Shown: positions 29,397 through 33,388 of the stretch, one piece after another
Numbering within the stretch: the first letter of the stretch is position 1
Layout: every line of letters starts with the position of its first letter
Origin: Dictyostelium discoideum
Lineage: Eukaryota
Direction of reading: 5' to 3'
NCBI GenBank assembly: GCA_000004695.1
Contig: CM000155.2
Coordinates: forward strand, 2,720,001 to 2,784,000
DNA length: 64,000 bases
The notes under the pieces: model-generated
The model's input: the letters and a program-made list of their open reading frames with translations, nothing else
Databases searched by the model: none
Told to the model about the DNA's origin: nothing
Translations under genes and position numbers: made by a program

Positions 29397-29774
29397 TTAA
29401 CAACATCTACGACGACGACCAATATCGATATCAATATTAATGATATTGGCGTTTGAACCGCCACAACTACCATTAAAACCACCAATACCACCCCATCCAC
29501 TTAAACCACTCCATCCAGCTAAACCACCACTACCACCACTACCACCACTACCACCACAACCACCATCAAAACATGAAATTGAATTATCATTACTAGCAAA
29601 TCCATTAAGATTAGAGGCACCAATTGAACTTCCCATTGAACCAGTTGAATTTGAAATTGATGAAATTGATTCTATTAAATATTAAGTTTTAATAGTAAGT
29701 AAATGATAGGTTACTATTTTTAAAAAAAGAGAAAAATGAAAAAAATAATAATAATATTTACTAAAAATTGCCAT
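29397..29774 (-). CDS. Small Gly/Ser-rich protein, member A (about 95 aa, two exons) of the RRHRRCC-ended family. hssA/2C/7E-like.
   Basis: Exon 1 29762..29774 (ATGGCAATTTTTA, donor GTAAAT). Acceptor tttaatag. Exon 2 29397..29671. Protein [51 protein letters not shown]...[28 protein letters not shown]. Confidence 0.65.
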
Positions 29775-30081
29775 TTATTTGTGTATTTTTTTTTTTTATA
29801 ACTTTTTTTTTTTAAAATGATTTTATTTTTTTTTTTTTCAATATAAATAGTCTATTAAATTGTTTGATTAATTTATTTTAAAATTAAAATTTATTATAAA
29901 ACAACAAAATATGTGTTTTAAATATTTTTTTTTCTTTTTAAACAAGTCTATTTCAACTTTTTTTTATATTTTATTTTATTTTTTTAAAATTAAAAAACTA
30001 TAAATTCTTTTTTTTTTTTTTTTTTTTTAAAAATAAATAAATAAATAAAATACAAATAAAAAAACAAATAAATATCAAACA

Positions 30082-30421
30082 AATGACAATTTTTAGTAAA
30101 TATTTTTTTATTCCTAATTAATAATAGTAAATACTTGAAAATATTAAATTACTAATAATTTTTATAATAATAAATAATTTAGATTCAATTTCATCAATTT
30201 CAAATCCAACCAGAACAGCATTAAGTTCAATCAACACCTATAATTATAATGGATCATCTGTTAATGATAATTCAACAGCATATTTTGATAATGATTTTGG
30301 AGGATGGGGTGGTTTAGGTGATTTTGGTAATGGTAATGGTTGTGGAGGTGGTAGTTCAAATGTAAATGTTATTAACCTTGACATTGATTTTGGTCGTCGT
30401 CGTCATCGTAGATGTTGTTAA
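30082..30421 (+). CDS. Family member B (84 aa, two exons).
   Basis: Exon 1 30082..30094 (ATGACAATTTTTA|GTAAAT). Exon 2 30183..30421. Protein [83 protein letters not shown]. Confidence 0.65.
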
Positions 30422-30910
30422 TTCGCTTTAATTATTAAATAAATATTTTATACTTGCAATTTAGAAGTTAAATAGTTTTTTTTTTTTTTTTTTTTTTTAT
30501 AATGGCTATTAATACATATGCAAGGTTTAATAAATATTGAATGTAAAATAAATAACGCAATTGTTATTTTCCTCTCCTTGAGATACTTATTTTCATTTTA
30601 TTTATTGTTTTTTAATTCTTAATAGCATGCTAGTTGTTGATTTTTTTTTTTTTTTTTTTTTTTGTTCTTTCTTTTTTTTCTTTGATAGGGGAAAGTTGAA
30701 AGTTTATAATAAAAAAAGAATTAAATGATTGGAAAAAAGTAGAGTTTAAAAATTAAAAATAAAATAAAAATGTCTTGGTGAATTATTAAAATTAAAATAA
30801 AAAAAGTAAAATAAAAAAATAATAATAGTTATAATAACAGGGATTAAATTTTTAAAAAGAAGTTTTAAATGAAATATTTTATTTATTTAAATTTAAATTT
30901 TGTGAAATAA

Positions 30911-31252
30911 TTAACAACATCTACGATGACGACGGCCAATATCGATATCAATGTTTATGATATTTGCATTTGAACCACCACAACCAACATTAAAACCACC
31001 GATACCACCCCATCCACCTAAACCACCACCACCACCACCACCATCAAAACATGAAATTGAATTATCATTACTAGAAAATCCATCTTTACTAGAGAAACCA
31101 ATTGAACTTCCCATTGAACCAGTGGAATTTGAAATTGATTCTATATTATATTTAATTAGAATGGTTAGTAAATAGTTAGTTATTTTTTTAAAAATAAAAA
31201 AAAAAAAAAAAAAAGAAAATATAAAGAAATAGTATTTACTAAAAATTGCCAT
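30911..31252 (-). CDS. Family member C (about 80 aa, two exons).
   Basis: Exon 1 31240..31252. Exon 2 30911..31140 (acceptor atataatatag). Ends [29 protein letters not shown]. The intron happens to be open in frame, which explains the single 113-aa ORF in the track. Confidence 0.6.
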
Positions 31253-31542
31253 TTTTTATATTTATTTGTTTATATGATTTTATTTTTATTTTTTTAAAAA
31301 TTTTTTTTCAATTAAAATAGTTTATTAAATTGATAGATTAATTTATTTAAAATAAAATAAAAAATTTAAATTTCCATTATTAAACAAAATTTGTGTATTA
31401 ATTATTTTAAGCAATTTTATAATCCTTTCAACTTTTTTTTTTTTTTTTTTCAAAAATTATAAATACTAATTTTTTTTTCATATTAAAAAAAAACAAATAA
31501 AAACAAATATACAAAAAAAAAATAAAATAAATATATCAAGAA

Positions 31543-31860
31543 ATGTCAATTTATTGTAAATATTCTATTTTTTAATATGAATATACTTAAAAATTTTAAT
31601 AACAATTTTAAAATAATAATTTATTAGATTCAATTTCCTCAATTTCAAATCCAACTAGAATGGCATTAAGTTCAATCAACACATATAGTTATAATGGATC
31701 ATATGTTAATGATAATTCAACAGCATATTTTGATAATGATTTTGGAGGATGGGGTGGTTTAGGTAATTTCGGTAATGGTAATGGTTGTGGTGGTAGTTCA
31801 AATGTAAATGTTATTAACCTTGACATTTATATTGGTCGTCGTCATCGTAGATGTTGTTAA
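31543..31860 (+). CDS. Family member D (81 aa, two exons).
   Basis: Exon 1 31543..31555 (ATGTCAATTTATT|GTAAAT). Exon 2 31628..31860. Protein [81 protein letters not shown]. Confidence 0.6.
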
Positions 31861-32373
31861 TTCACTTTACTCTAATTAATAAATAAAATAATAATTTTTT
31901 TTTTATTATTATTTTAAAAGATATTATTCAAAAATTAATTTTATTATTTTTTTTTATATTTTTAGTATAAAATTTTTTTTTTTTTTTTTTTTTTTCCTTT
32001 AAATTTTTATATACTTGTATCTTAATATCATAATTTTTTTTTGTGTTTTTCTTAAAATAAAAAAAAAAAAATAAAAAAAAAATAAAATTTATTTTTTAAA
32101 TTAAAAAGTGTTTTAGATATTGATTTATTTTTATTTTTTTTCTTTTCTTTTCTGTTTTTATATTAAAGGAACTTTAAAATCAAGATTGGAAAAAATAATG
32201 TCAACTTTAAACTTATTGAAATAATTAATTGGAATATTCAGAAATTAAACAAATAAAATTATAAATGTTAAAGGTATTAATAGAGAAAAAAAAATTTTAA
32301 AAAAACTTAAATTTTATTTGAATTTAGGAGAAAAAAAGATAAAAATTATCCAATTTTTTTATTAACTTGTAAA

Positions 32374-32727
32374 TTAACAACATCTACGACGACGGCGACA
32401 TATATCAATGTCGAGGTTAATGATATTTGTGTTTGAACCGCCACAACCACCATTAAAACCACCAATACCGCCCCATCCACTTAAACCACTCCATCCACCT
32501 AAACCACCACTACCACCACAACCACCATCAAAACATGAAATTGAATTATCATTACTAGCAAATCCATTAAGATTAGAGGCACCAATTGAACTTCCCATTG
32601 AACCAGTTAAATTTGAAATTGATGAAATTGATTCTATTATATTTTAATTTTAATAGTAAGTAAATGATAGGTTATTATTTTTTAAAAAAACAGAAAAAAA
32701 ATAATAATATTTACTAAAAATTGCCAT
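32374..32727 (-). CDS. Family member E (about 90 aa, two exons).
   Basis: Exon 1 32715..32727. Exon 2 32374..32633. Ends ...[29 protein letters not shown]. Confidence 0.6.
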
Positions 32728-33046
32728 TTATTTGTGTATTTTTTTAAAAATGATTATTTTATTTTTTAATAGTTTTTTTTTTTTTTTTTCAATATAAATA
32801 GTTTATTAAATTGTTTGATTTTTTATTTAAAAATTAAAATTTATTATAAAACAACAAAATATGTGTTTTAAATTATTATTTTTTTTCTTTTTAAACAAGT
32901 TTATAAATATTTCAACTTTTTTTATATTTTATTTTATTTTATTTTAAAAAAATTAAAAAACTATAAATTCTTTTTTTTTTTTTTTTTTAATAAATAAATA
33001 AATAAAATACAAATAAATAAATAAATACAAATAAAAAAACAAACAA

Positions 33047-33388
33047 ATGACAATTTTTAGTAAATATTTTTTTTTTCTTAATTAATATAAGTAAATACTT
33101 GTAAATATTAAATTACTAATAATTTTTATAATAATAAATAATTTTTTAGATTCAATTTCATCAATTTCAAATCCAACTAGAACAGCATTGAGTTCAATCA
33201 ACACCTATAATTATAATGGATCATCTGTTAATGATAATTCAACAGCATATTTTGATAATGATTTTGGAGGATGGGGTGGTTTAGGTAATTTCTGTAATGG
33301 TAATGGTTGTGGAGGTGGTAGTTCAAATGTAAATGTTATTAACCTTGACATTGATATTGGTAGTCGTCGTCATCGTAGATGTTGTTAA
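33047..33388 (+). CDS. Family member F (83 aa, two exons).
   Basis: Exon 1 33047..33059. Exon 2 33150..33388. Ends ...[18 protein letters not shown]. Confidence 0.6.

Follow-up and report, generated by a model that had tools for sequence, protein, structure and literature searches.

Between positions 29397 and 33388 of a 64,000-nt window on chromosome 6 of Dictyostelium discoideum AX4 (the window being the whole stretch of DNA analysed, in whose coordinates all positions are given), six small genes, A to F, stand in head-to-head pairs, and a seventh copy, G, lies apart from them. The locus raises the question of what kind of genes these are, how the array arose and what its products might do. 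The kind is not new, as the array consists of an annotated and published type of gene. It represents, very probably, hssA/2C/7E (sigN-related) small-protein genes of the UniProt branch UPF0512, with the gene models and duplication history set out below.

The C-terminal coding string CGTAGATGTTGTTAA occurs seven times (at 29397, 30911, 32374 and 36536 on the minus strand and at 30407, 31846 and 33374 on the plus strand), compared with 0.19 occurrences expected by chance. The 5' end of each of A–F carries the exon-1 and donor string ATGRCAATTTTTAGTAAAT, which reads ATGTCAATTTATTGTAAAT in D. Splicing exon 1 (13 nt) at the nearest AG acceptor that keeps the frame gave six ORFs of 80–95 aa. Each of these genes has a 13-nt coding exon 1, a GTAAAT donor, a single intron of 72–99 nt and an exon 2:

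29397-29774, minus strand: gene A, minus-type; exon 1 29762-29774 (ATGGCAATTTTTA), intron 29672-29761 (90 nt, GTAAAT...TAG), exon 2 29397-29671; 95 aa, ending GRRRRCC
30083-30421, plus strand: gene B, plus-type; exon 1 30083-30095 (ATGACAATTTTTA), intron 30096-30182 (87 nt), exon 2 30183-30421; 83 aa, UPF0512 protein I (XP_629194.1)
30911-31252, minus strand: gene C, minus-type; exon 1 31240-31252, intron 31141-31239 (99 nt), exon 2 30911-31140; 80 aa, UPF0512 protein J (XP_629195.1)
31543-31860, plus strand: gene D, plus-type, the most diverged; exon 1 31543-31555 (ATGTCAATTTATT), intron 31556-31627 (72 nt), exon 2 31628-31860; 81 aa, UPF0512 protein K (XP_629196.1)
32374-32727, minus strand: gene E, minus-type; exon 1 32715-32727, intron 32634-32714 (81 nt), exon 2 32374-32633; 90 aa, UPF0512 protein L
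33047-33388, plus strand: gene F, plus-type; exon 1 33047-33059, intron 33060-33149 (90 nt), exon 2 33150-33388; 83 aa, UPF0512 protein W (XP_629198.1)
36536-36811, minus strand: gene G; single intact ORF, 91 aa, ending GRSHRRCC; product exactly matching UPF0512 protein M (DDB_G0293326, XP_629201.1)

In the ORF list, exon 2 of B has no ATG start of its own. A 13-nt exon-1 ORF, a short intron and exon 2 make up 89 of the 96 published family members (PMC2257962), and the same structure is found in A–F and not in G. The initial annotation had given all seven genes one identical micro-architecture with introns of about 90–110 bp; the architecture holds for A–F, where splicing yields the ORFs, and fails for G, and the introns proved shorter. 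The N-termini, Gly cores and RR(H)RRCC ends that it described are seen in the spliced A–F ORFs, and the alternation of strands that it reported is borne out, with minus/plus order in all three pairs (A/B, C/D and E/F). Alignment of the seven proteins likewise showed its two sub-types to be real, each pair joining one gene of 'MAIFK...' type to one of 'MTIFN...' type. Correct micro-exon gene models can thus be recovered from sequence alone in DNA of 80% A+T.

Comparison with a protein collection identified the products of B, C, D, F and G as exact matches to UPF0512 proteins I, J, K, W and M, respectively, and that of E matches UPF0512 protein L of AX4 from end to end at 100% identity; an exact A product was not found in the collection. 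The entries for B–F are named "hssA/2C/7E family protein" at NCBI, and that for G "hypothetical protein DDB_G0293326". In Additional file 1 of Vicente et al. 2008 (BMC Microbiol 8:1, PMC2257962), A corresponds to sigN147 (DDB0191871), C to sigN171 (DDB0191873) and E to sigN156 (DDB0191875). These three were matched to chromosome 6 entries by the lengths of the protein, exon 2 and intron, the lengths given there being always one below those counted here. B, D and F are apparently outside that list, as none of its nine chromosome 6 rows has the size of B and F (83 aa) or D (81 aa). Against Pfam PF05710 (HssA/B-related 'Coiled'; gathering score 21.4 bits), B, E and F scored above the threshold (23.4, 22.7 and 22.2 bits) and A and D under it (18.5 and 16.6 bits), and C and G gave no hit; the matches span only the N-terminal ~60–75 residues. 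The resemblance to the hssA/2C/7E family suggested at the outset is therefore upheld by the identity of B–G to AX4 proteins, by the names of B–F and by the Pfam scores of B, E and F. The basic-Cys-Cys end, singled out then as the distinguishing mark, agrees with UniProt's treatment of UPF0512 as a separate family. Knockout guide and primers for DDB_G0293360 did not map to the 64,000-nt window.

The 13-nt exon, the arrangement in inverted pairs, the conservation of promoters and an origin by repeated duplication of an inverted pair were all reported earlier, by Vicente et al. 2008 (PMC2257962). Like the array, the sigN Group 1 and 2 clusters on chromosome 2 have a 13-nt coding exon 1, a short intron and exon 2; their products are also <100 aa, Ser/Gly/Cys-rich and begin with M-x-[IL]-F-x-SISS; and their neighbours are likewise in opposite orientation around a common intergenic promoter region conserved between pairs. 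A, C and E are in the paper's list of 96 relatives, yet share only 19–24% identity with SigN1, and the array C-terminus, NIINxDIDIGRRxRRCC, differs from that of sigN. Unlike sigN pairs, each array pair joins two distinct sub-types. With respect to UPF0512 (D. discoideum proteins A–X) there is no difference, the products of B–G being themselves members. Since the genes are already in the AX4 reference and UniProt, and both the micro-exon and the amplification of inverted pairs have been in print since 2008, the gain in annotation is small.

The genes of each pair are separated by an intergenic region, the putative promoter of the pair:

29775-30082, unstranded: A/B intergenic region, 308 bp, 8% G+C; conserved blocks AAATAGTCTATTAAATTG at 29845 and AACAAAATATGTGTTTTAA at 29903; TATAAAT and T-run at 29999, 84 nt upstream of the B ATG; TATA-like element 29842-29849, about 70 nt upstream of the A ATG
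31253-31542, unstranded: C/D intergenic region, 290 bp; the same blocks at 31315 and 31383; TATAAAT at 31458
32728-33046, unstranded: E/F intergenic region, 319 bp; the same blocks at 32796 and 32853; TATAAAT at 32962

These ATG-to-ATG regions are homologous, with 84% identity between pairs 1 and 3 and 67–68% between either and pair 2, as compared with 60–62% for shuffled sequence, which supports the earlier claim that regions of ~300 bp are conserved between pairs. The core elements differ between the two sides: on that of the plus genes TATAAAT is accompanied by a T-run, on that of the minus genes a TATA-like element by an A-run. A bidirectional promoter common to each pair is plausible: transcription would proceed outward from the intergenic region, with one TATA-like element ~70–85 nt upstream of each ATG and the common conserved blocks placed centrally. 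On neither strand of the three regions was a full GBF G-box, (T/G)G(T/G)G(T/G)G(T/G), found, nor do they contain a palindromic promoter with two GBF-box pairs of the sigN Group 2 type. As sigN Group 2 promoters do have GBF boxes, regulation of the array may differ from that of the studied members. Inverted similarity in pairs 1 and 3 is restricted to ~15–65 nt upstream of the ATGs, and the inverted local alignment of pair 2 covers part of exon 2 only. In contrast to sigN, palindromy in the array is confined to the 5'UTR and exon 1 ends.

The repeat copies start 1445–1522 bp apart. A pair module of ~1.05 kb, comprising the gene pair and its intergenic region, is present in three copies with a period of ~1.5 kb; hence, of the ~1.5-kb repeating unit initially proposed, the spacing stands, whereas merely ~1.05 kb per period can be aligned. 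Modules 1 and 3 are 88% identical and module 2 is 73–76% identical to either. The borders of the tract common to modules 1 and 3 are sharp, at the minus-gene stop codon and ~30–40 nt past the plus-gene stop. Similarity between the ~0.5-kb spacers is at the level of shuffled sequence, except for one 74-nt patch:

29251-29324, unstranded: conserved spacer patch, 80% identical to 30744-30817, offset 1493 bp

With an alignment score of 36.5 against a shuffle maximum of 23, this is the only significant spacer patch and, judged by that alignment, what is left in the spacers of the ~1.5-kb unit first duplicated. Within a pair, the genes are paralogues in inverted orientation, their similarity running from ~55–65 nt upstream of the ATG as far as the stop codon, and the unit alignments agree with the origin by tandem duplication of a pair that had been suggested; duplication of an inverted gene pair was likewise concluded for the sigN clusters (PMC2257962). 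The array would have arisen by inverted duplication of a single gene, then tandem duplication of the resulting pair, and later module-limited copying or gene conversion linking units 1 and 3. The sharply bounded 1.05-kb tract shared by these units may reflect module-limited gene conversion that is ongoing, in which case promoter and gene pair would be kept together.

In the distal copy G, a minus-type exon 2 is preceded by 13 nt left over from the end of the former intron (ATGGGATATCCAG followed by AATC...), and its homology to A, C and E stops at the acceptor. Upstream of G on its own strand, no exon-1-like sequence was found, nor was any ATG...GT(A/T)A donor within 300 nt that would give an open frame into its exon 2. 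G is flanked by an 80-nt inverted repeat with arms 97.5% identical:

36378-36457, minus strand: left arm; 5'UTR-like sequence, exon-1-like ATGATAATTTTTA at 36431-36443, GTAAAT donor
36919-36998, plus strand: right arm; exon-1-like ATGATAATTTTTA at 36933-36945, GTTAAT donor

Both exon-1-like copies (36425-36443 and 36933-36951 with their donors) point away from G, and no exon 2 lies beyond the left one. Adjoining the right arm is a 27-nt fragment of an exon 2 3'-end on the minus strand (36896-36922; GSNTNIINI). G is therefore a rearranged remnant in a scrambled locus that has kept only an open exon 2, and the annotated member DDB_G0293326 is now recorded as structurally aberrant. Seven of the 96 published family members also deviate from the usual gene structure.

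The A–F products are Gly/Ser/Asn-rich, with 80–95 residues, and end in NIINxDIDIGRRxRRCC; D has DIYIG in place of DIDIG and an altered exon 1 (MSIYY). Their size and composition are those of the family (<120 aa; 12–25 Gly, 11–19 Ser and 3–6 Cys), and both UPF0512 motifs, M-x-I-F-x-SISSISN and N-[IV]-I-N-x-D-I-D-I-x-R-R-x-R-R-C-C, were found. Residues N72, N74, I76, N77, D79, I80, R84, R88, C89 and C90 are invariant in the alignments, and the invariant terminal residues are common to 17 homologues, including those of D. firmibasis, where the gene-pair organisation also occurs. The same C-terminal motif is present in D. purpureum and D. citrinum and, in weaker form, in Tieghemostelium lacteum; the terminal CC is replaced in some homologues, which end in WC, YC, RC or WF. 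Differences in length always come as gaps of whole codons, located in the SISS repeat or the Gly-rich core, which keeps the seven frames open. Within types, dN/dS is 0.21–0.66, the values of 0.57–0.66 being reached in pairs with D. From these comparisons of sequence, the conserved termini are under moderate purifying selection. AlphaFold2 gave a mean pLDDT of 41 and a pTM of 0.13, no relatives of the products were found in the PDB, and the products are predicted to be disordered.

A tentative proposal is that the functional product is a protein, not RNA alone, of a redundant, abundant, structural or assembly type, with a polybasic/Cys C-terminus that attaches it to membrane or matrix. The products would be disordered Gly/Ser/Asn-rich polypeptides of 8–9 kDa, in which the selected parts would be the N-terminal M-x-I-F-x-SISSISN and the C-terminal N-[IV]-I-N-x-DIDI-x-RR-x-RR-CC, and attachment could proceed via charge together with S-acylation or disulfide formation. 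By analogy with family members that are developmentally induced and prestalk- or cup-specific (PMC2257962; PMC6198379; PMC3640940), among them the nine cup-specific genes of an hssA/2C/7E clade (Kin et al. 2018, PMC6198379), the genes would be activated in the prestalk/cup lineage in the course of multicellular development; expression in the family is also influenced by GBF and SrfA. Against the proposed function stands the lack of a phenotype when 13 sigN genes were deleted and when six family members were knocked out singly (PMC2257962; PMC8554618).

The lack of a knockout phenotype for protein-coding members would also fit genes that act mainly as RNAs, their ORFs being secondary. This was reported for hssA (DDB_G0280999), which reportedly acts via its transcript: the phenotype of partial STATa activity was suppressed even by a copy with a shifted frame (Kin et al. 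2018, PMC6198379). For the array such a role is improbable, as every within-type dN/dS is below 1, seven reading frames are intact despite indels and the protein termini are conserved out to D. purpureum. Moreover, synonymous divergence is not below intron/intergenic mismatch (Fisher p 0.05–1.0), and so no additional constraint at the level of nucleotides is evident in the exons. The same knockouts would fit an array that is largely redundant and drifting without individually selectable function, G certainly and D perhaps being pseudogenes or becoming so. The lost exon 1 and scrambled locus of G, and the altered termini and raised dN/dS of D, point that way. This is nevertheless unlikely, because A–F retain the ATG, GTAAAT donor, AG acceptor, open frame and C-terminal motif, dN/dS is still below 1, and the family persists across group 4 species.

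It is doubtful, if somewhat less so, that the products are classically secreted slime-sheath or extracellular-matrix proteins or adhesion factors, as Vicente et al. hypothesised for SigN and as the signal-peptide-like N-terminus of the initial annotation would imply. A Gly/Ser/Cys-rich composition like theirs is indeed found in small matrix proteins insoluble in urea; small vesicles were stained with SigN antibodies, and an anti-Group 2 serum dispersed mounds (PMC2257962). Those antibodies were unvalidated, surface or matrix staining was not seen (PMC2257962), and the SigN data come from another branch of the family with another C-terminus. A signal peptide was taken to have a hydrophobic core of ~7–15 residues within the first ~25, hydropathy serving as a heuristic only. 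No such core was found in the products: the maximum 9-residue Kyte-Doolittle value is 0.47–1.31 and the longest hydrophobic run 2–4 residues, as against 3.59 for the neighbouring gene at 35452-35661. The latter, used as a control, encodes a small Cys-rich protein with a hydrophobic, signal-peptide-like leader.

With regard to the proposed attached protein, retention of the C-terminal module from D. discoideum to D. purpureum in fast-evolving disordered proteins with no hydrophobic N-terminus of signal-peptide type raises the possibility that it serves specifically as a signal for targeting or modification, although the odds are against this more specific role. It might form a polybasic, dually S-acylated or lipidated anchor, or an amphipathic beta-strand for self-assembly, which would assemble together with the N-terminal IFKSISSIS strand. 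If so, the products would form a novel class of micro-proteins, lipid-anchored or self-assembling, with a part in dictyostelid multicellular development. The strongly conserved termini are those of a group 4-specific family of ~100 genes in which no knockout so far has disclosed a function. By description only, the products can be likened to SRCP1, an 88-aa serine-rich chaperone that suppresses polyglutamine aggregation (Santarriaga et al. 2018), which PMC8554618, where it is cited, places in the same large class of small proteins under developmental regulation, and which is likewise of low complexity and Ser-rich.

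In the window, which has a G+C content of ~20%, CGTAGATGTTGTTAA (encoding …RRCC and the stop codon) is present in six copies on alternating strands between 29397 and 33388 and in a seventh copy at 36536 on the minus strand, as compared with 0.19 expected by chance. The six genes of the cluster (A–F) all carry ATGRCAATTTTTAGTAAAT, or a variant with three mismatches, at their 5' ends. When the first 13 nt were spliced to the first frame-preserving AG acceptor, all six gave complete ORFs. These genes and the distal single-ORF copy G are listed below, with products from exact-sequence look-up shown for B, C, D, F and G.

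29397–29774, minus strand: gene A, 95 aa, intron of 90 nt
30083–30421, plus strand: gene B, 83 aa, intron of 87 nt; UPF0512 I, XP_629194
30911–31252, minus strand: gene C, 80 aa, intron of 99 nt; UPF0512 J, XP_629195
31543–31860, plus strand: gene D, 81 aa, intron of 72 nt; UPF0512 K, XP_629196
32374–32727, minus strand: gene E, 90 aa, intron of 81 nt
33047–33388, plus strand: gene F, 83 aa, intron of 90 nt; UPF0512 W, XP_629198
36536–36811, minus strand: copy G; UPF0512 M, DDB_G0293326, XP_629201

The donor is GTAAAT and the acceptor TAG in all of A–F, with predicted acceptors at 29671, 30183, 31140, 31628, 32633 and 33150, respectively. B and F have no ATG start in their second exon, and hence these two genes can be translated only via the micro-exon. 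The initial annotation had ascribed one micro-architecture to all seven genes; it applies to A–F, which share the 13-nt first exon, the GTAAAT donor and open spliced ORFs, and not to G, and the introns of A–F measure 72–99 nt rather than the 90–110 nt given there. Pro-rich ORFs of 74–81 aa lie antisense to the minus-type genes (29440–29685, 30951–31175, 32408–32647 and 36570–36815, all on the plus strand); these are a by-product of GGT/GGA-rich Gly coding on the opposite strand and are not genes.

After splicing, E encodes a protein that matches an AX4 'hssA/2C/7E family protein', UPF0512 protein L, at 100% identity from end to end. Given this match and the AX4 entries for B, C, D and F, the resemblance to the hssA/2C/7E family noted earlier is borne out; for Pfam PF05710 (HssA/B-related), B, E and F score above the threshold, A and D fall narrowly short of it and C and G have no match. 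Other UPF0512 loci lie on chromosomes 1, 2, 3, 5 and 6. The exact A product was not found in a 15-billion-protein collection in which all of its neighbours occur. Gene A is apparently fully intact, with 95 aa and canonical splice sites, corresponds to the 2008 prediction DDB0191871/sigN147, and may be missing from current public annotation or modelled differently there. Counterparts of A, C and E are listed by Vicente et al. 2008 (Additional file 1, PMC2257962) as sigN147/DDB0191871 (95 aa, 13//274, intron 89), sigN171/DDB0191873 (80 aa, 13//229, intron 98) and sigN156/DDB0191875 (90 aa, 13//259, intron 80), respectively, all three on chromosome 6 and with exon 2 and intron lengths uniformly one below the values obtained here. 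The alternate numbering DDB0191871/73/75 fits a placement of B, D and F between A, C and E. The same study described 96 related genes, with neighbouring genes oppositely oriented and intergenic promoter regions conserved from pair to pair (PMC2257962). Kin et al. 2018 restated the 13-bp first exon and reported one clade at extreme expression in cup cells (PMC6198379), and a later review gives the family as group 4-specific (PMC8067170). Since the family was published in 2008 and 2018 and the locus is annotated, the initial observation, though largely confirmed and supported in its interpretation, is an independent rediscovery of what was already known.

The three divergent pairs were compared segment by segment. 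Shuffled controls of the same segments gave 48–62% identity overall (exons 48–50%, introns 55–58%, intergenic regions 60–62%).

Identity between repeat units (1, A/B; 2, C/D; 3, E/F)
Minus-gene exon 2: units 1 and 3, 88%; unit 2 with 1 and 3, 74–78%
Minus-gene intron: units 1 and 3, 83%; unit 2 with 1 and 3, 66–67%
Intergenic region: units 1 and 3, 84%; unit 2 with 1 and 3, 67–68%
Plus-gene intron: units 1 and 3, 91%; unit 2 with 1 and 3, 69%
Plus-gene exon 2: units 1 and 3, 97%; unit 2 with 1 and 3, 93–94%

The intergenic regions are thus conserved between pairs above the shuffled level, as had been proposed. In local alignments, 29397–30451 of unit 1 matches 32374–33426 of unit 3 with 88% identity, a homology bounded precisely by the minus-gene stop codon on one side and reaching ~30–40 nt past the plus-gene stop on the other. 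Alignments with unit 2 gave 73% for unit 1 (29257–30443 with 30750–31887) and 76% for unit 3 (30909–31914 with 32372–33438). No similarity above shuffle level was found in the 300 nt downstream of the plus- or minus-type genes, and the ~0.5-kb spacers share a single in-register patch of 74 nt (29251–29324 and 30744–30817; score 36.5, highest shuffled score 23). The two halves of a pair are inverted paralogues of each other from ~55–65 nt upstream of the ATG through the stop, with 62% identity in pair 1 (29838→29397 and 30029→30421). These alignments suggest that one gene would have undergone inverted duplication, that the resulting ~1.5-kb unit was then probably duplicated in tandem, and that later copying limited to the module may have joined units 1 and 3 on either side of the more diverged unit 2. 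By gapped identity, plus-type exon 2 (93–97%) stands against 69% for the introns. Homogenisation limited to the exons, or constraint at the RNA level, was rejected as a cause, as synonymous divergence (0.05–0.25) is not significantly below the mismatch in introns plus intergenic regions (0.06–0.27; Fisher p 0.05–1.0, aligned positions only).

With lengths of 308, 290 and 319 bp, the intergenic regions contain 7–9% G+C. Each plus-gene ATG is preceded, 84–85 nt upstream, by TATAAAT followed by a long T-run, and each minus-gene ATG, ~70 nt upstream, by a TATA-like element with an A-run after it. The blocks AAATAGTYTATTAAATTG and AACAAAATWTGTGTWTTAA are also conserved; each has one copy per pair and no further copy in the window, three in all. 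Divergent transcription out of the ~300-bp region would be the obvious model. The full GBF consensus (T/G)G(T/G)G(T/G)G(T/G) is absent from all three regions, which in this respect differ from sigN Group 2 promoters.

A Dictyostelium firmibasis locus (CM069770.1: 2301773–2322133; family region 6929–18769) carries nine called small genes, seven of which were confirmed by scan as family members, in two groups. Several members form divergent pairs with intergenic regions of ~290–515 bp; the C-terminus is degenerate in some of the products (…GRHRRWF, …GRRHRTYC). The conserved intergenic motifs of the A–F pairs were not found there, and the locus is not orthologous to that in the window, because the flanking genes differ.

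The G ORF runs from 36811 to 36536 and begins MGYPE. Its homology to A, C and E stops at the acceptor (CCAG|AATCAATTTC), and the start codon lies in the former 3' end of the intron. Neither exon-1-like sequence nor a frame-compatible ATG…GT(A/T)A donor was found on the same strand within 300 nt upstream. An 80-nt inverted repeat, 97.5% identical, lies on both sides of G (36378–36457 and 36919–36998); each arm carries an orphan exon-1-like ATGATAATTTTTA and an outward-facing splice donor with no exon 2 beyond. On the minus strand, a 27-nt piece (GSNTNIINI) from the 3' end of a further exon 2 is located at 36896–36922. Hence, given the missing exon 1, the end of homology at the acceptor and the outward-facing arms, DDB_G0293326 is a rearranged remnant within the scrambled remains of a divergent pair. 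A flip between the 80-nt repeats was rejected as its origin: judged from coordinates, neither orientation puts exon 2 downstream of a same-strand exon 1, so that no canonical gene results from a simple flip. When the G region was compared with the cluster by blastn, AT-rich low-complexity matches swamped the output, the self inverted repeat being the only informative part. NCBI names G a 'hypothetical protein', not a family member, and DDB_G0293326 was not found in the accessible part of the supplement text of PMC6198379. The G locus lies between two RhoGEF-related ORFs that face each other: a 667-aa PH-IQ-RhoGEF protein (37100–39103, minus strand) and a fragment-like ORF of 192 aa (34206–34784, plus strand), which has a DH-type motif and poly-Asn run and may be a partial duplicate.

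Between conserved termini, the proteins have a Gly-rich middle that is variable and differs in length by whole codons; invariant positions among 17 homologues are concentrated in M1/S9/I10/N12 and N72…C90. Among 1.84 billion representative proteins, a profile search gave just 11 matches at E <= 1e-3. Of eight of these that were identified by name, six are dictyostelid (D. firmibasis 2, D. purpureum 2, D. citrinum 1, Tieghemostelium lacteum 1, weak); the other two, of 745–846 aa and hit in 8–9 separate stretches, one from Hexamita inflata, were taken to be low-complexity noise. AlphaFold2 with the 17-sequence alignment gave no fold (pLDDT 41, pTM 0.13), and a PDB sequence search gave no relative, only chance-level matches (E >= 0.2).

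The constraint on coding sequence, together with the conserved termini, speaks for a protein product of these genes. Tentatively, this would be a small disordered protein, abundant and redundant, that could attach to membrane or matrix by its polybasic-Cys-Cys end. An RNA-level role would accord with hssA, which acts at least partly via its RNA (PMC6198379), but is very unlikely here, as the same constraint and termini point to protein. Within-type dN/dS is 0.21–0.66 (small counts, all values below 1), and drift toward pseudogenes is considered improbable. Classical secretion is somewhat less doubtful, yet still unlikely: the N-terminus, described initially as signal-peptide-like, alternates Ile/Phe with Ser and has no hydrophobic core (maximum KD(9) <=1.31), as compared with 3.59 for the positive control, the hydrophobic, signal-peptide-like leader (MLKIIVTILVIFSLLSNLNA) of a 69-aa ORF with six Cys and no Pfam match between F and G (35452–35661, minus strand). 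Amidation or dibasic processing (DIDI-G-RR) was rejected as the leading idea, since several homologues have C, D or V in place of the Gly that precedes RR and the N-terminus has no signal-peptide-like hydrophobic stretch.

In the wider class, six single knockouts had no effect (PMC8554618), and DDB_G0293356 and DDB_G0293362 are mef2A-dependent hssA-related genes (PMC3640940). The published knockout of DDB_G0293360 (PMC8554618) was discarded as data on A–F, as neither its guide nor either screening primer matches the window. No DDB_G number was matched to any of A–F.

The window further contains the following features.

57486–57558, plus strand: tRNA-Asp
57877–58545: ORF downstream of tRNA-Asp
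58739–62182: ORF with apurinic-type endonuclease and reverse transcriptase domains
8442, 10061 and 48404: tRNA genes for Leu, Glu and Val, respectively

The layout of 57486–62182 is characteristic of TRE-type non-LTR retrotransposons, which target tRNA genes, when inserted on their downstream side. Two 91-nt Rfam tRNA matches on the minus strand (50337–50427 and 51961–52051), for which ARAGORN made no call, have the same score of 52.5 bits, lie 1.6 kb apart and are probably duplicated intron-containing tRNA genes.
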